Shown here one piece after another: positions 49,255-56,187 of a stretch of 64,000 bases of DNA. The notes under the pieces are model-generated. The model was not told where the DNA came from. It worked only from the letters and a program-made list of their open reading frames with translations, and ran no database searches. How positions within the stretch are numbered: the first letter of the stretch is position 1; each line of letters opens with the position of its first letter. Source of the stretch: an uncultured Verrucomicrobiae bacterium (GTDB lineage: Bacteria; Verrucomicrobiota; Verrucomicrobiia; Chthoniobacterales; Chthoniobacteraceae); the NCBI GenBank assembly GCA_963769025.1, contig CAVYKI010000012.1, positions 224,001 to 288,000 of the forward strand, written 5' to 3'. The position numbers and the translations under genes were made by a program.

Positions 49255-50046
49255 ATGGAAATCATCATCCAACCCACTCCCGAAGCCGCCAGCATCATCG
49301 CGGCGCGCATCATCGCGAAGCTAGTCCGGACAAAGCCGGATTGCGTGCTCGGACTCGCGACGGGCAGCACGCCGCTCGCCACCTACCGCGAACTGGCACG
49401 GATGCATCGCGAGGACGGGCTCGACTTCTCGAAAGTGACCACCTTCAACCTCGACGAATACGTCGGACTGCCGCCGGACCACTCGCACAGCTATCACGCG
49501 TTCATGGATGAGCATTTTTTCCGGCACGTGAATGTGCCGCGTGCAAACATCCACATCCCGGACGGCATGGCGCGCGACGTGCCCGAGGAGTGCGCAAGCT
49601 ACGAGGCGGCGATCGTCGCGGCTGGCGGGATCGATCTGCAATTGCTCGGCATCGGCACGGACGGACACATCGGCTTCAATGAGCCGTCGTCATCGCTCGC
49701 ATCGCGCACACGCATCAAGACGCTCACTGAGCGGACGCGCGCGGACAATGCGCGGTTCTTTGACGGGGATCTCGCACGGGTGCCGTTTCACTGCATCACG
49801 ATGGGCGTCGGGACGATCATGGCTTCCCGCGAAGTGCTCATGCTGGCGTTCGGCGCAAACAAGGCCGCGGCGGTGGCTGCAGCCGTGGAGGGATCCATCA
49901 CCGCCATGAACCCGGCGAGCGTGCTGCAGATGCATCCGGTCGCGAAGTGCATCGTGGACGAGCCCGCTGCGGAAAAGCTCGCACGACGCGATTACTACCG
50001 CTGGGTTTTCAGCCACAAGCCCGAGTGGCAGCGAATCAGCGGTTAG
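49255..50046 (+). CDS. nagB: Glucosamine-6-phosphate deaminase
   Basis: LGLATGSTP, FNLDEYVGL, LGIGTDGHIGFNEP, TMGVGTI. Confidence 0.96.
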   Translation: MEIIIQPTPEAASIIAARIIAKLVRTKPDCVLGLATGSTPLATYRELARMHREDGLDFSKVTTFNLDEYVGLPPDHSHSYHAFMDEHFFRHVNVPRANIHIPDGMARDVPEECASYEAAIVAAGGIDLQLLGIGTDGHIGFNEPSSSLASRTRIKTLTERTRADNARFFDGDLARVPFHCITMGVGTIMASREVLMLAFGANKAAAVAAAVEGSITAMNPASVLQMHPVAKCIVDEPAAEKLARRDYYRWVFSHKPEWQRISG

Positions 50047-51820
50047 GCGGCGCGGCAGGCGGATTGGGCGGGGCTGGCGACGGTGGCGCGACCTCGTTGG
50101 GGAATGGGATCGACTTCGCTTTCCCTATGAGGCGGTAACCTTCCGACACGCGCACTTCGATTGAGTGCGTCCGCCCATCGCGGAGCCATTCGGGCAGTTC
50201 GGCGCGGAAGGCAATCGCCCCGTCCCCGTAGCCACGATCGCGGAGGTCGGCGCGTGGAAGTATGCACTGGGCGCGCGCGACCCACGCACCGTCGGCGTAC
50301 ACATCCACGATCGCCGGCACGCCGGCCTTGTCCTTTTGCCACACATAGCCGGAGATGCTGCGGTGGTCCGCTTCCTCGATCATCGCGTCGTACGCCGGCG
50401 GCGGCGGGGGCGTGAGACGCCCGCTGAAGAGCAGCATGCCGAGCGCGATGGCGTGGAAGGTGATGCCGATGTTCAGCGCGCGCCACCAAGGGCCGTCGCC
50501 CCACACCTTCGCCTGCTTGTTCCAGCGCGCGAAAATGTCGTAAGCGCACAGGAGCACGGCGTGGTAGATGCCGTAAACGATGTAGTAGAGGGTGAGGCCG
50601 TGCCAGACACCCATGAGGCCGAAGGTGAGGAAAAGGCCGAGGTAGCTAGCCGTGTATTTTCCCTTGAACCACTTGCCCTTCATCGCGGCGAGCTGGAACC
50701 GCATGTGGATGTGATCGCGGAACCAGAACGAGAGGCTGATGTGCCAGCGCGTCCAGAAATCGCGGATGTTCCGCGCGAGGAACGGGAGGGAGAAATTTTC
50801 CGGCGACTTGATTCCCATCAGCCGCGAGATGCCGACAGCGAAGGCGCTGTAACCCGCGAAATCGAAGAACAGGTAGAAGGTATAGACATACATGTAGCCC
50901 GCATAGCCCCAGAAGCCGGCGACTTTCAGCAACGGCACGCGCAGGTGGGCGTCGATTTCCGCCGCGATGATGAACTTGTAGAGGAACCCGCGCATCACGC
51001 GCTGGATCGCGAAGTCCAGGTCGTCGAGGAACTCAGCGCGCGTCCGGGTCTTCACCCAATCCTGGCCGAAGCGGCGGTACCGATCGATCGGGCCGGACGA
51101 AACGGTCGGAAGAAAAAACAGGAAGGCGAAGAGCTGCCCGGCAGAGAGCGATTTTACGACGCCGTCGCGGATGGAAAATATCACATCCAACGCGCGGAAG
51201 GTGACGTAGCTGATGCCGATGTAGCCAAAGACGTTCTCATGCGAGACGAAAGGAAGGAGCCTGTTCACCGTGAGCGGCAGCAGTGTGAGCAGGAGGGCCA
51301 CGACGAATGTCCGATTGGATTTCCAGCGGAGAAACAGGAACGGCACGCAGACCTGCCACGCCGCGCAGAGCAGAAAAAGATAGAGCGGCGAAAACTCGGT
51401 ACCGGTCGCCGTGGCATTCCACGGGCGGATCAGCGTCGCATCGCCAACCGCCGGCAGGTGCATACCCCCGAGGCGGAGAACGATGTTGTCGTGCTGCGCG
51501 AAGATGAGCGCGAGCATCGGAAGAGCGATGATGAAGCACCACCGGGCGCTCGAGTTTGCGAATGTGGCCACCAGGAGCAAAAAGAGCGGGAACGGCCAGG
51601 TCGCCCTCAACTCGTGCAAAAACTGAGTGAACGGTCCCAAGTCATTGATCGGGAACATCACCGCACTTGCCACGTTGATGACAAACGGAACACCGAGGAC
51701 GGCACATGCCATTATGGCGATGCGCCACAGGCGGGTCGGCGCGATGCCGATCACGACGATCGGCAGGACCACGTAGAGCAGCAGCAGGCCGAAGAACGTC
51801 CAGTTGGCAAATGGCGTCAT
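50036..51820 (-). CDS. dltB: DltB-type MBOAT acyltransferase with N-terminal insertion and extra C-terminal domain
   Basis: GISYVTFR, PTVSSGPIDRYRRF, YLFFDFAGYS, FWTRWHISLSFWFRD, MGVWHG catalytic His; operon context. Confidence 0.9.
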   Translation of the reverse strand: MTPFANWTFFGLLLLYVVLPIVVIGIAPTRLWRIAIMACAVLGVPFVINVASAVMFPINDLGPFTQFLHELRATWPFPLFLLLVATFANSSARWCFIIALPMLALIFAQHDNIVLRLGGMHLPAVGDATLIRPWNATATGTEFSPLYLFLLCAAWQVCVPFLFLRWKSNRTFVVALLLTLLPLTVNRLLPFVSHENVFGYIGISYVTFRALDVIFSIRDGVVKSLSAGQLFAFLFFLPTVSSGPIDRYRRFGQDWVKTRTRAEFLDDLDFAIQRVMRGFLYKFIIAAEIDAHLRVPLLKVAGFWGYAGYMYVYTFYLFFDFAGYSAFAVGISRLMGIKSPENFSLPFLARNIRDFWTRWHISLSFWFRDHIHMRFQLAAMKGKWFKGKYTASYLGLFLTFGLMGVWHGLTLYYIVYGIYHAVLLCAYDIFARWNKQAKVWGDGPWWRALNIGITFHAIALGMLLFSGRLTPPPPPAYDAMIEEADHRSISGYVWQKDKAGVPAIVDVYADGAWVARAQCILPRADLRDRGYGDGAIAFRAELPEWLRDGRTHSIEVRVSEGYRLIGKAKSIPFPNEVAPPSPAPPNPPAAPPNR

Positions 51821-51839
51821 CGGAAATTCACCACCACGG

Positions 51840-53303
51840 CTACAGCATCTCCGCCAACTTCTTCCGGTCGGCCTTCCCGTTGTTGTTCATCGGGAAGCTG
51901 TCGAGGAAATGGAATTTCCGCGGCACCATGTAAGCCGGCAGCCGTTCCCCGAGCTGCGTCTTCAATTTTGCCGCCTGCTCGAAATCCGTACCCTGCTTCG
52001 CCCCGCTGAGGACGATGAACGCGGCAAGCGAATCAATCTTCCCGCCTTTCTGAACAGGGAGAACGACCGCGTCCGCGATGTCCGGCAGCGCGCGAAGGTT
52101 GGCCTCGAGATCACCAAGCTCGATGCGATGCCCGAAGAGCTTGATCTGGCTGTCCATGCGGCCTTCGCAAAATAGCATGCCGTCGCGGTCGCGGCCCCAG
52201 TCGCCGGTGCGATAGGCGCGCGTGTCGTCGATTGGGTAGAATGCCTTTGCCGTGAGGTCGTCCCGCTTGAGGTAGCCGGGGCTGACATTCGGGCCCGCGA
52301 TTACAATTTCGCCGCGCTCGCCGGGAGGCACGGCCTTGCCATCCTCGCCGCGGATGATGACGCGTGTGCCCGGCATGACGTAACCGATGGGCAACGGGTT
52401 CCATTGCGCGATGGTCTCGCGCGTGATGCCCACCTTCGTCATCGCGACGGTCGCCTCGGTCGGGCCGTAGGTGTTCCAGACCGGAACGCCCGGGAACCGT
52501 TCAAGCAGTTGCGACGCGGTCTCCGGTGCGAGCGTCTCGCCGCAAAAGTGGAACGCGCGCAGGTGCGGCATCATCGTCGAGTTGAAGCCCTTTTCGATCA
52601 TGCACATCTGCGCAAACGAGGGGGTGGTCATCCACTGCGTCGCTCCGCTGTTCCGCAGTGCCTCGAAAAGCGCGCGCAGGTTCGAGACGTGATCCTTGGT
52701 GAGGCTGAAGATCGTGTTGCCCGAGCTGAGCGCCAGGTAGATGTCGTGGACGGAGAGATCGAACGTGAACGGCGCGTGGTTCAGGAAAATCTCGCCACAT
52801 TCGCGGAAACCGCCGTCGCCGTGCATCCACGAGAGATAGTGGTTCAGGTTGCCGCGCGTGATCACCACGCCCTTCGGCTCGCCGGTGCTGCCGCTCGTGA
52901 AGAGGATGTAGAAAGGGTCGGTGTTTTCGAGGGGCTTGCGCCGGTAGTCCACCGCGCCCGCCGCCGAAATGATTTCGGCGACCTTCGCAGGCGTGAGGAC
53001 GACCTCGGCGCCGGCGATTTCGACCACGCGCTCCATGCGTTGCGCAGGAGTGGAATAATCGATCGGAACGTACGGCCGCCCGGATCTCACCGCGGCGAAG
53101 AAGCTCATGAGCATCTCCGGCTCCTTGTGCCCGTGCACTGCCACGGGGCTGCGCTTGTCGCCGAGCTGCGCGTCGAGCCATGCCGCGACCGCATTGCTTC
53201 CGGCGAGCAGTTCACCAAAGGTCATCCGCCGATCGTTGCTGACGTGTGCGAGACGATCGGGGGCCGTGCGCCCGTATTGTTCGATTTTGTCGAGAAGGTG
53301 CAT
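51840..53303 (-). CDS. dltA: D-alanine--D-alanyl carrier protein ligase
   Basis: YILFTSGSTGEPKGV, APFTFDLSV, FCGE, NTYGPTEAT, YRTGD, NGKADRK. Confidence 0.93.
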   Translation of the reverse strand: MHLLDKIEQYGRTAPDRLAHVSNDRRMTFGELLAGSNAVAAWLDAQLGDKRSPVAVHGHKEPEMLMSFFAAVRSGRPYVPIDYSTPAQRMERVVEIAGAEVVLTPAKVAEIISAAGAVDYRRKPLENTDPFYILFTSGSTGEPKGVVITRGNLNHYLSWMHGDGGFRECGEIFLNHAPFTFDLSVHDIYLALSSGNTIFSLTKDHVSNLRALFEALRNSGATQWMTTPSFAQMCMIEKGFNSTMMPHLRAFHFCGETLAPETASQLLERFPGVPVWNTYGPTEATVAMTKVGITRETIAQWNPLPIGYVMPGTRVIIRGEDGKAVPPGERGEIVIAGPNVSPGYLKRDDLTAKAFYPIDDTRAYRTGDWGRDRDGMLFCEGRMDSQIKLFGHRIELGDLEANLRALPDIADAVVLPVQKGGKIDSLAAFIVLSGAKQGTDFEQAAKLKTQLGERLPAYMVPRKFHFLDSFPMNNNGKADRKKLAEML

Positions 53304-53305
53304 GG

Positions 53306-53458
53306 CTAGAACTCCGCGTAAACAAACTCGGGTGTTTCGAAATTTCCGCGTCCATACATCGCCACCAGCACGGCGATGATCGCGAGGTAGTAGAGGGCCA
53401 ACAACGCAGGCCGTGCGCGGGGATGGGCCTCGAGCCAATGCTTTGCGGTCGAGATCAC
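53306..53458 (-). CDS. dltX: DltX-like single-TM peptide (50 aa)
   Basis: GTG start overlaps the dltC stop; LYYLAIIAVLVAMYG TM; C-terminal FVYAEF matches the DltX F-(I/V)-Y-x-x-F motif. Confidence 0.85.
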   Translation of the reverse strand: MISTAKHWLEAHPRARPALLALYYLAIIAVLVAMYGRGNFETPEFVYAEF

Positions 53459-53703
53459 GCTGCGAGGCGTTTTTGCACGTCGGCCACCATCTTCGCCGGG
53501 GTGGCCCATGCGTCACGGTCGAACTCCGCCGGGGAGATTTCCACGCCGATCTCCGTCTGGAGCGCGACGATGAGCTCCACCGTCTTCATCGAGTCGAGGA
53601 TCTGCAGATCGTAGAGCGCAAGGTCGGGGTTTGTCCGGACTTCCTCGGTGTCGGCGACGCGCGCGAGGACATCGATCACTTGTTCGTTGGTCGCTGTGGC
53701 CAT
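53455..53703 (-). CDS. dltC: D-alanyl carrier protein
   Basis: ILDSM phosphopantetheine Ser; EFDRDAWATP is characteristic of DltC. Confidence 0.93.
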   Translation of the reverse strand: MATATNEQVIDVLARVADTEEVRTNPDLALYDLQILDSMKTVELIVALQTEIGVEISPAEFDRDAWATPAKMVADVQKRLAA

Positions 53704-53736
53704 GGGTATTTGAGGGAATGGCGGGTCACTTTCCCG

Positions 53737-54930
53737 CTAGTGCGATTTCTTCTGTGGCTGGTGGTAGAAATCGTCAAGAACCTTGTTAAAAAGCATCCAC
53801 GCGCGCTCGCCTGGATGGTCGAGTTCGTCCGCAAAAAAGGTCGGGTCATCCTCATACTGGCTGAAGTACACGAGCTGCATTCCGTATTTGGACGCGAGCT
53901 CGTTCAGCCGCTCGCCATATGCCTTTCGCGCGGAAGCGGAGACCCCGGTCGTCTCGAGCGCCGGCCCGTGCAGCGGCATCGAGAGCAGCAGCGCGTCAGC
54001 CCGCATTTCCTTCAAAGTGCGCAACAGCAGCTCGAAATCCTCCCATTCGTCCGCCGCCTTCAGCGTTTTCAGGAAGGCCGCGTCGCGCGAGCCTTTCGGG
54101 AGCTTCGCCATGCGCGGCGCGATGGGTGGGCGCGTCGTCTTTACCTTCACGCTCGTCTTCCGAAGGATCTCCTTCCAATTCAATCCCGGGATGAGGTGCG
54201 GCTTCGGATCCTTCTCCTCGCTGTTCGCTGCGATGCGCAGCCCAGCCTCGATGTGATCCTGCGCGCGGCCCACGTAGTTCGTGAGTTTTCCGAGCGGCCA
54301 GAGCGCTGCGTACAGCGCGCGATCGAGCGTCGTGTCCCCCGCCAGTCGCCGCAGCCCGAACTCCAGCGTCCAGTTTCCCTCGATCGTCTCAGGGTACTCC
54401 ATCATCCGCCGCGCCGCGTCGCGCTTCAGCCCGGGGCCGAGATGCGTGCTGAATGCAAGCTCCCGCGCCTGGAGCACGCTGAAATTCCCCTCGTAGTAAC
54501 CCTGGTTCAGTTTCTCGGTGAAGAAGTAGGTTGGCGAAATCGTGAATGCGACTTTGCGGTCCGCGATATAGTGCCCGACCGATGCGATTTTCTGCATGAT
54601 CGCCAGCGAACTCGTGCCAGGCTTGCCGACCTCGAAGACGCGGAAGCCGGTCGGGAACGGCTCGAAGAAATCCACCGCCTTGGTCGGCACGCGCGGGTCG
54701 CTTCCCAGCTCCGAGCTCCCGTATAGCACGAGCAGATCGGGCTGCGCGAAGGCAGTTTTTTGAAGCGCGACCCCCTGCAGTTTCAGGTCACTGCGTTCGT
54801 TCGTCAGGTTGAGGATAAAGCTCTGCTCGGCCCGCGCGCACAAAAGCACGGCTGCGAGCGCGGAAACCGCGGCGACCCCACCTGCGATGGTGAATGCCTG
54901 AAGATGATGGTGCGTCGTGGGGGCAGTCAC
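53737..54930 (-). CDS. dltD: DltD D-alanyl transfer protein (SGNH-like; start uncertain)
   Basis: N-terminal TM, LYGSSEL, G..GT.SL, ISP.YF, EWEDF.LLL, D..HPG. Confidence 0.88.
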   Translation of the reverse strand: MTAPTTHHHLQAFTIAGGVAAVSALAAVLLCARAEQSFILNLTNERSDLKLQGVALQKTAFAQPDLLVLYGSSELGSDPRVPTKAVDFFEPFPTGFRVFEVGKPGTSSLAIMQKIASVGHYIADRKVAFTISPTYFFTEKLNQGYYEGNFSVLQARELAFSTHLGPGLKRDAARRMMEYPETIEGNWTLEFGLRRLAGDTTLDRALYAALWPLGKLTNYVGRAQDHIEAGLRIAANSEEKDPKPHLIPGLNWKEILRKTSVKVKTTRPPIAPRMAKLPKGSRDAAFLKTLKAADEWEDFELLLRTLKEMRADALLLSMPLHGPALETTGVSASARKAYGERLNELASKYGMQLVYFSQYEDDPTFFADELDHPGERAWMLFNKVLDDFYHQPQKKSH

Positions 54931-55068
54931 GGAGGGAAAATGGAATGGGGCATTAAACTCAACGATGCCGGGTGGAGTCAATCATGCCCCGAAACTCGCA
55001 CGGATGCTTCATGCCGGACCCGCCTTGCGCTGCGAGGCAATACGGTGATACCACCCGCTCCATCCGCC

Positions 55069-56187
55069 GTGCGCATCCTGATCGCTCCCGACAAATTCAA
55101 AGGTTCGCTCTCCGCTCCCGCAGCGGCGCAGGCGATCGCCCACGGCGTGCGGGCTGTGTGGCCTCATGCACACCTCGATTTTGCACCCATCGCCGACGGC
55201 GGCGAGGGTTTTGCCGAATCGCTCGCGGTCGCGCTGGGTGCCAAGTGGGTGACCGCCGCCAGCCAGGACGCCATAGGCCGGCCGATCGAAGCGCGCTACG
55301 CGTGGGTGCCGGAAGAATGCCTCGCAGTCATGGAAATGAGCGAAGCCAGCGGGTTGCACCGGCTAGGGAAAAGCGAACGCGATCCGCGGCGTGCCGACAC
55401 ATTCGGAACCGGGGTGCTGCTCGCGCATGCCGTCGCACGCGGCGCCCGGCGGATTCTCATCGGTCTCGGCGGAAGTGCAACGACGGATGGCGGAGCGGGG
55501 ATGGCGCGCGCGCTCGGTTACCGGTTCCTCGATCACGACGGGCGCGAGTTCCCCGCGCTCCCCGGCACGCTGGCCATGCTCTCCCGCATCGAACGTCCGC
55601 CGGGTCTCCGCTTGCCGGAAATCGTCGCCGCGTGCGATGTGCAAAATCCCCTTCTCGGCGAGCGAGGCACGGCCCGTGTCTATGCACCGCAAAAAGGGGC
55701 GGATCCCGGCACGGTCGAATTTCTCGAAAAATCCCTGTCGCGGCTCGGCGAGATCGCCACCGCATGCCTGGGTTGCGACCATCGTGCCGTCCCCGGAGCC
55801 GGAGCCGCCGGCGGCCTGGGATATGGCTTGCTCACCTTTTGCGGCGCCTCGATCCGCCCCGGATTCGACATGATTGCGGAGACACTGCGCCTCGAAGGGC
55901 GCATCGCCGCGGCGGATCTGGTGATCACCGGCGAAGGACGGATTGACGATCAGACACTCGACGGCAAAGGGCCTGCCGGAGTCGCCGCGCTTGCCCGCAA
56001 AGCCGGAAAGCCCGTGATCGGATTCGCTGGCTCCGTCACAGCCGCGGCGGAAAGCGCAGGGGTTTTCGATGCCATCATCCCCATCGCCGAAGGACCGCTC
56101 ACGATCGACGACGCGATGCGCCAAGCTGCCGTCCTTCTTGAACGCGCTACCTGTCGCGCCATGAGTCTGCTCCGCCTCAGGGTGTGA
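55069..56187 (+). CDS. Glycerate kinase
   Basis: ILIAPDKFKGSL, ADGGEG, GLGGSATTDGGAG, GAAGG, TGEG.ID.QT..GK. Confidence 0.93.
   Translation: MRILIAPDKFKGSLSAPAAAQAIAHGVRAVWPHAHLDFAPIADGGEGFAESLAVALGAKWVTAASQDAIGRPIEARYAWVPEECLAVMEMSEASGLHRLGKSERDPRRADTFGTGVLLAHAVARGARRILIGLGGSATTDGGAGMARALGYRFLDHDGREFPALPGTLAMLSRIERPPGLRLPEIVAACDVQNPLLGERGTARVYAPQKGADPGTVEFLEKSLSRLGEIATACLGCDHRAVPGAGAAGGLGYGLLTFCGASIRPGFDMIAETLRLEGRIAAADLVITGEGRIDDQTLDGKGPAGVAALARKAGKPVIGFAGSVTAAAESAGVFDAIIPIAEGPLTIDDAMRQAAVLLERATCRAMSLLRLRV

Follow-up and report, generated by a model that had tools for sequence, protein, structure and literature searches.

Why would a bacterium with an outer membrane, and with no teichoic acid genes found in its genome, carry a complete D-alanylation system, and what would this system modify? 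The question is raised by the dltD-dltC-dltX-dltA-dltB locus of an uncultured Verrucomicrobiae bacterium, which lies on the minus strand at positions 50036-54930 of a 64,000-nt stretch of DNA (the window), inside a 601-kb contig. The Dlt system is a textbook trait of Gram-positive bacteria and a target of antibiotic adjuvants. It has been known for more than 10 years in a few Gram-negative pathogens, and the acceptor there is not settled. We propose, with a probability of about 0.78, that the locus encodes a functional Dlt pathway that works in a diderm envelope and would D-alanylate an acceptor other than teichoic acid. The system is new in three respects, namely its presence in a diderm order without teichoic acid genes having been found, its permuted gene order and its extended DltB.

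An earlier note on this DNA had described five packed, co-oriented and frameshift-free dlt genes in the order D-C-X-A-B instead of X-A-B-C-D. This description was upheld, since the genes contain no internal stops and all five products match Dlt models when scored against curated profiles (Pfam, TIGRFAM and NF) with the cut-offs of each model. The first gene, dltD (53737-54930), encodes 397 aa from a GTG at 54930 and matched PF04914 with 143.8 bits (cut-off, 22.7; E = 1.1e-41). It is followed by dltC (53455-53703; 82 aa), with matches to NF003464 (87.6 bits; cut-off, 68), TIGR01688 (82.7 bits; cut-off, 52.35) and PF00550, and by dltX (53306-53458; about 50 aa), a single-helix microprotein that passed PF12459 (26.0 bits; cut-off, 25). 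The product of dltA (51840-53303; 487 aa from an ATG at 53303) is a DltA-type adenylating enzyme by NF003417 (527.5 bits; cut-off, 476), and that of dltB (50036-51820; 594 aa) passed TIGR04091 (395 bits; cut-off, 375). The profile checks proposed earlier were thus borne out for these models and failed for the two stricter equivalog models, TIGR01734 for DltA and TIGR04092 for DltD. On the sequence level we regard the locus as a confirmed, genuine five-part Dlt system.

Two start codons needed attention. The longest open reading frame (ORF) of dltD begins at a TTG at 54981, so that the longest-ORF extent of the five genes is 50036-54981; the true start is probably the GTG at 54930, in line with relatives of 395 aa. 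Similarly, dltX had been listed as a 67-aa ORF, which starts at 53509 and overlaps dltC. This had to be corrected to a probable start at the GTG at 53458, giving 50 aa, because the alignment with the relatives in loci L027 and L022 does not begin before residue 19-20. With this start, the GTG of dltX overlaps the TGA of dltC as GTGA. The other spacers are 33 nt (dltD/dltC), 2 nt (dltX/dltA) and 19 nt (dltA/dltB). The overlap and the spacers of 2 to 33 nt suggest translational coupling, which we count in favor of a working pathway. A scan of positions 49800-55400 gave no promoter-like sites and seven terminator-like sites, compared to 4.8 expected. A search of sequencing runs listed no RNA run; three DNA runs of one study contained 5 to 6% of the words.

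We then considered the residues that the relay would need. The motifs named beforehand were all found: FCGE in DltA, DSM in DltC, WHG in DltB, and GSSE together with a C-terminal His in DltD. DltC has the phosphopantetheine serine of a dedicated carrier protein in its DSM motif, and its identity across 11 close loci is 88 to 96%. The microprotein DltX ends in FVYAEF, an instance of the FXYXXF motif, and F-[VI]-Y-x-x-F was present at the C terminus in 31/31 related loci printed. The role of FXYXXF as an acyl-shuttle motif is described in PMC12148441. DltD has a hydrophobic N-terminal segment and is of the membrane-anchored SGNH-like D-alanyl transferase type. It matches the solved DltD structures 6o93 and 6pfx with the GSSE serine and the C-terminal His aligned. 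This serine, Ser89, was invariant in 25/25 aligned sequences, and the His, located in LDHPGERAW, aligns with that of 6o93.

Variation in DltD was observed elsewhere in the order. In three homologues from C-D-X-A-B-type loci (L029, L041 and L046), GSSE is replaced by GSCE, and DDLN or ADPN stands where the catalytic His would align; these proteins may use other catalytic residues or be inactive. At L032:3663-6193, dltD is duplicated in tandem (D-D-C-X-A-B), with copies 35% and 37% identical to the DltD of the window.

DltB is a membrane-bound O-acyltransferase (MBOAT) protein whose catalytic WHG histidine, His407, was invariant in 26/26 aligned sequences. The MBOAT core spans positions 50423-51820 (residues 1-466), with model positions 55-380 of TIGR04091 covering residues 146-469. 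The AlphaFold model of DltB (predicted local distance difference test [pLDDT], 81.5) matches solved DltB (8jem/6bug) with an E value of 3e-21 and a target TM-score of 0.73. All of the closest DltB proteins belong to this lineage, and the NCBI pipeline labels as DltB proteins of Chthoniobacteraceae metagenome-assembled genomes (MAGs) and of "Verrucomicrobiota bacterium sgz303538." The homologue from the latter (P0225) has 66% identity across the matched core (residues 146-470). A Spirochaetota MAG protein with 41% identity is likewise named DltB. Of ten clusters of distant DltB relatives that were looked up, two bore an organism name, too few to name a donor lineage. The genome of the window encodes six further, weaker MBOAT matches of the PatA/AlgI-type kind.

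Taken in sequence, these parts would form the following relay. DltA would adenylate D-alanine in the cytoplasm and place it on the phosphopantetheine arm of DltC. The MBOAT protein DltB would then hand the D-alanine through the inner membrane to the Tyr of the FVYAEF motif of DltX, from which the membrane-anchored, SGNH-like DltD would accept it on Ser89. At the periplasmic side, DltD would finally esterify a hydroxyl of the acceptor, and the beta-sandwich of DltB, probably located in the periplasm, may help in holding this acceptor or a partner. Judging from the Gram-positive systems and from those of Dickeya and Bordetella, the expected effect would be a cell surface of less negative charge.

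This scheme is close to that of the DltX-DltA-DltB-DltC-DltD system of Bacillota, which D-alanylates lipoteichoic and wall teichoic acid. The two have five components in common and share catalytic and relay residues, including the Tyr of the DltX FXYXXF motif, and the X-A-B order is the same; each protein of the window matches a curated Dlt model or a solved Dlt structure. In contrast to the Bacillota system, dltC and dltD lie upstream and not downstream in the window, DltB is lengthened by a helical insertion and by a beta-sandwich at its C terminus, neither DltD nor DltA reaches its equivalog cut-off, and the host is a diderm in which no recognizable LtaS or TagF genes were found.

An MBOAT protein, an SGNH-fold partner, an acyl-Tyr on FXYXXF and, as the target, a periplasmic polymer of Gram-negative bacteria are also features of PatA/PatB, which O-acetylate peptidoglycan, and of AlgI/AlgJ-type systems, according to PMC12148441. 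The window likewise combines an MBOAT, an SGNH-like partner and an FXYXXF tyrosine. However, the PatA/PatB and AlgI/AlgJ-type systems use an acyl-CoA donor, have no adenylating enzyme or carrier and bear the Tyr motif on two extra MBOAT helices, whereas the window has the motif in DltX, a protein of its own, and a carrier protein as the donor. Indeed, DltA and DltC are present and the C terminus of DltB is devoid of FXYXXF, so that the locus is not of the kind in which the motif is fused to the MBOAT and a carrier is lacking. Another related system, AlmE-AlmF-AlmG of Vibrio cholerae, adds glycine to lipid A by means of a DltA-like ligase and a DltC-like carrier. There, transfer is performed by a lipid A acyltransferase at the cytoplasmic face, and no DltB, DltX or DltD is involved, while the window encodes the full extracytoplasmic relay.

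The envelope of the host was investigated in the assembly, which comprises 5.34 Mb in 13 contigs and is 83% complete. Profile searches recovered LpxC (310.9 bits), BamA (532.2 bits) and 15 matches to OEP-family outer membrane proteins, of which one lies with the dlt genes on the 601-kb contig. The host is therefore a diderm and not a monoderm (Gram-positive) organism, as had been suspected from the window. The lack of ltaS and tag genes noticed in the window could be extended to the assembly. Searches with the TagF-type family PF04464 gave zero matches, and the controls B. subtilis and L. lactis were positive. There were 52 matches at E <= 1e-10 to PF00884, the sulfatase family to which LtaS, OpgB and EptA belong. 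Inspection of the 31 fuller matches revealed at most one hydrophobic segment before the domain, and none of the 31 ORFs had the multi-helix N terminus of LtaS, OpgB or EptA. Thus, these ORFs look like secreted sulfatases and not like membrane-embedded LtaS-type enzymes, and LtaS-type and TagF-type synthases count as not found in this host. We infer from these searches that, as far as the genome shows, the acceptor would not be a classical teichoic acid. The pipeline label "lipoteichoic acid biosynthesis protein DltB" is probably partly wrong in this host. The 52 sulfatase-family matches, which are partly clustered (e.g., at C6:560-570 kb and C9:308-322 kb), would indicate a large capacity for the use of sulfated glycans.

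What could the acceptor be instead? Our best guess, which we hold at slightly under even odds, is lipopolysaccharide (LPS) or another lipid-linked envelope glycan; alternatives are an envelope protein or an undescribed polymer. We place LPS or a lipid-linked glycan first because the proteobacterial precedents point to LPS or to an outer membrane component. That a few Proteobacteria have dlt loci had been noted before and is documented in PMC5541007 (Dickeya and Pectobacterium) and PMC4448142 (the dra locus of Bordetella). The acceptor is described as "probably LPS" in the former and, for Bordetella pertussis, as a component of the outer membrane that is susceptible to protease in the latter, citing Taneja 2013. 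These systems reportedly make the cells more resistant to cationic peptides, and their acceptor is not firmly identified. As far as the published descriptions go, they resemble the window in that a Dlt-type system occurs in a bacterium that has an outer membrane but lacks teichoic acid. They differ in that they belong to another phylum and occur in few pathogens, compared to an order-wide and diversified trait here. We know of no report of a fused DltB domain in the proteobacterial dlt or dra systems. A periplasmic glucan had also been listed as a candidate acceptor; a glucan of the E. coli type lost support, since no MdoG was found in the assembly.

The assembly contains four genes of the Wzy_C family (O-antigen ligase/polymerase-like) over the cut-off. 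In another genome of the genus (G007), two genes located 3 to 7 kb from dltD-C-X (L047:802-4656) encode a Wzy_C-family protein of 827 aa and a GT4 (WecA/MraY-like) glycosyltransferase. This neighborhood may be read as a hint, single and non-independent, at a lipid-linked glycan as the acceptor.

The most distinctive part of the system is DltB, with 594 residues compared to about 385 to 415 in canonical forms. Part of the difference is an insertion (about residues 27-145) that follows the first helix and is helical according to the AlphaFold model. In the alignment of 26 DltB sequences, an insertion of about 70 residues at this place was confined to the protein of the window and the four sequences closest to it, and a loop of about 25 residues was shared with two further sequences. 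We infer that the insertion would add two membrane helices, since parity must be kept; a hydropathy count, which is too crude for an MBOAT, did not settle the number of helices.

The remaining length is due to a C-terminal extension (50036-50422; residues 467-594) without any Pfam match. A Pro-rich linker leads to a beta-sandwich of about 100 residues (about 477-572), which is followed by a Pro-rich tail. Folded alone, the beta-sandwich reached a pLDDT of 91.7. A Foldseek search against the PDB gave no match at E <= 0.001, the generic matches being at E >= 3e-3, and with VIA-align the 48,161 chains searched yielded at best a Z of 7.6, every hit being among generic immunoglobulin- or fibronectin type III-like accessory domains. 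Thus, no specific fold family could be named, the structural neighbors being generic. The domain is present in 13/26 aligned DltB proteins: it was found in 12/14 D-C-X-A-B systems and in one split system, and in 0/10 systems of the C-D-X-A-B or C-X-A-B type.

Relatives of the beta-sandwich were sought exhaustively among 1.84 billion representatives, and the best 150 matches were considered. Among these, seven long proteins of 1030 to 1993 residues (P0002, P0006, P0009, P0043, P0045, P0060 and P0113) match by this domain only, in 3 to 15 stretches each. Five of the seven have a C-terminal sorting domain of the type IX secretion system (T9SS), with 7 to 15 stretches per protein, and one T9SS-sorted repeat protein is named by NCBI as coming from Dyadobacter. 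The beta-sandwich hence resembles a family of surface repeats that has no Pfam model. Another protein of 827 aa (P0004) contains a DltB homologue (47% identity) and the same beta-sandwich, followed by Lcl_C (PF07603), and appears to be a further DltB fused to extracytoplasmic modules.

The side of the membrane on which the C terminus of DltB lies was taken from the literature and the domain relatives, not computed. In solved DltB, the N-terminal helix is extracellular and ten transmembrane helices come after it (PMC11035591), and two further helices are required in other MBOATs to place the Tyr motif outside (PMC12148441). From this topology, this two-helix requirement and the secreted, T9SS-sorted relatives, we conclude that the beta-sandwich probably faces the periplasm. 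A cysteine pair brackets the domain in 6/13 homologues, as expected for a disulfide in an oxidizing compartment; the window copy is without the pair. A predicted complex of the periplasmic part of DltD with the C-terminal domain of DltB scored 0.01, compared to a mark of 0.32.

These observations lead to a more specific and more tentative version of the proposal, which we consider possible but rather doubtful. An undescribed envelope molecule of the Chthoniobacterales would be D-alanylated in the periplasm, as an old, order-wide trait of surface charge, and the beta-sandwich of DltB in the D-C-X-A-B lineages would recognize or position it, replacing the role that the recognition of lipoteichoic acid has in Gram-positive bacteria. 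The molecule could be a region of LPS, a lipid-linked glycan or an anionic polymer unrelated to the products of LtaS and TagF. If this were true, cultured members of the order could reveal the acceptor of a Gram-negative Dlt system.

Several points weigh against a functional Dlt pathway with a non-teichoic acceptor. DltA and DltD remained below their equivalog cut-offs (509.6 bits versus 559.85 for TIGR01734 and 135.8 bits versus 150 for TIGR04092), and the pocket of DltA differs from that of Bacillus at two sites, where His stands for Met201 and Met for Val303. The guess of LPS draws on the analogy with Proteobacteria and on one genome, G007. The teichoic acid genes must be called not found rather than absent, because the assembly is 83% complete, and 21/52 sulfatase-family matches, all partial or fragmentary, were left uninspected. 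Moreover, when all ORFs of 25 loci, the window included, were clustered, no conserved neighbor outside dlt was detected beyond close relatives; large neighbor "clusters" were rejected as antisense ORFs inside the dlt genes.

The changes in the pocket bear on which amino acid enters the relay. DltA might load another small amino acid, such as glycine, L-alanine or D-serine, in which case the same relay would perform an aminoacylation other than D-alanylation. Besides the two substitutions relative to B. cereus DltA and the missed TIGR01734 cut-off, such a reading can appeal to the ranking among solved structures, in which the adenylation domain of linear gramicidin synthase (368 bits) precedes the DltA proteins of Streptococcus (332 bits) and Staphylococcus (304 bits). 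However, among solved structures the DltA proteins of B. cereus (455 bits) and, next, of B. subtilis (441 bits) match best, and not generic nonribosomal peptide synthetase domains; a clustering with such domains had been named in the earlier note as a refuting outcome. The DltA subfamily cut-off of NF003417 was also passed. Furthermore, the window protein has the same residues as B. cereus DltA at Asp197, Leu198, Cys269 and Val301, the cysteine of FCGE aligning with Cys269, which we take to be the enantiomer-selecting residue. An FCGE-type cysteine was found in 19/22 full-length DltA proteins of the order. The His at the Met201 position is limited to the genus group of the window (6/22), and the other 16 have Met, in a Bacillus-type FDLSVMD or FDVS-MD motif. 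We therefore regard another substrate as unlikely and D-alanine as the likely substrate of this DltA, on the strength of these alignments. Genes of the alanine racemase family are present in the assembly and make a supply of D-alanine in the host plausible.

A further possibility is that the host makes a teichoic acid-like polymer of glycerol phosphate or ribitol phosphate, by enzymes that were missed or are unrelated to LtaS and TagF, and that Dlt acts on this polymer. The incomplete assembly, a synthase search that covered two families only and the uninspected partial sulfatase matches leave room for it. The lack of PF04464 matches with positive controls and of multi-helix N termini in the inspected ORFs speaks against it, as does the literature search, which found no link of dlt to the phylum; full-text searches, whose coverage leaves out most subscription journals, found no discussion of dlt in Verrucomicrobiota. 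To our knowledge, teichoic acids have not been reported in Verrucomicrobiota either. We consider such a polymer very unlikely. A functional pathway acting on a non-teichoic acceptor thus remains the favored reading.

This reading is also supported by the distribution of the system. We took a TIGR04091 match for true DltB when E was <= 1e-80, a limit that AlgI-like paralogues (<200 bits) do not reach. True DltB was over the cut-off in 20/24 other genomes of the genus. In an even draw from the phylum (401 genomes, 185 genera), it was found only in the genome of the window and in 0/400 others. A draw from the order gave it in 90/401 genomes, 22/93 genera and 7/16 families. The positive families were f1 (47/71), f6 (19/30), f14 (9/71), f7 (7/43), f16 (3/17), f5 (2/8) and f8 (2/71), and the remaining nine had 0/89. 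Within the phylum sample, Dlt is therefore a trait of the order Chthoniobacterales, apparently old enough to have diversified and lost in many genera, and its conservation across the order would reflect long-term purifying selection.

The 11 close loci, which were found via DltD, are in MAGs named as Chthoniobacterales, Chthoniobacteraceae or Spartobacteria and in one named Prosthecobacter, in agreement with the verrucomicrobial host that had been assumed. The five genes of the window are intact and 57 to 96% identical to those of relatives. The flanks, which include a PIG-L deacetylase gene, a glucosamine-6-phosphate deaminase-family gene and a glycerate kinase gene, are syntenic in three or four other independent MAG loci, and the GC content of the dlt stretch is 0.62 to 0.63, within a range of 0.58 to 0.69 across the window. 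Syntenic flanks and ordinary GC content make contamination untenable, and likewise a chimeric join, which had been named as a possible refutation.

An origin of the locus as a Firmicute fragment, by contamination or chimeric joining, or as a recent, decaying and non-functional transfer is accordingly refuted as far as sequence can tell: the absence from 400 other genomes of the phylum fits acquisition by transfer at some time, and dltA is split into two or three frames in two loci of family f7, but the locus lies inside a 601-kb contig of matching composition with flanks shared by four other MAGs, its genes are intact, the proteins nearest to its DltB all come from this lineage, and the system recurs in seven families of the order. 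In those two f7 loci (L030:9138-10599 and L044:6511-7973), dltD is also inverted; the system of this family may be decaying, or the assemblies may contain errors.

Gene order was then compared among relatives. Among the 11 close loci, nine have D-C-X-A-B, one ends at a contig end after dltX and one (L013) diverges after dltX. Among 19 loci from across the order, eight have D-C-X-A-B (one with dltD duplicated), eight have C-D-X-A-B, two have C-X-A-B with dltD on the opposite strand, and one has dltB alone. X-A-B is thus contiguous in 18/19, and dltC and dltD are permuted or lie elsewhere. Circular permutation of X-A-B-C-D, the order in Firmicutes, gives C-D-X-A-B, and the order in the window corresponds to a swap of C and D from it. 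In two genomes of the same genus (G007 and G017), the system is dispersed over three loci, dltD-C-X, dltA and dltB, all intact and with 53 to 73% identity. That every part was kept despite this dispersal argues for function.

A bona fide Dlt system is hence conserved in an order of Verrucomicrobiota that are abundant in soil and freshwater. Sister genera with and without dlt, together with at least one sequenced isolate (judging by its NCBI name), form a natural set for finding the acceptor. The fused, probably periplasmic domain of DltB is a new architectural variant of a well-studied MBOAT and may mark an altered choice of acceptor.

Two individual loci deserve mention. In L013 (5409-11968), no clear gene occupies the roughly 1 kb after dltX, and giant Gly/Thr/Asn-rich repeat proteins come next (1263 aa and an open end of 549 aa), which points to a rearrangement or a misassembly. 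Finally, one genome of family f16 (G522) carries two complete C-D-X-A-B loci, L033 and L046, on separate contigs.

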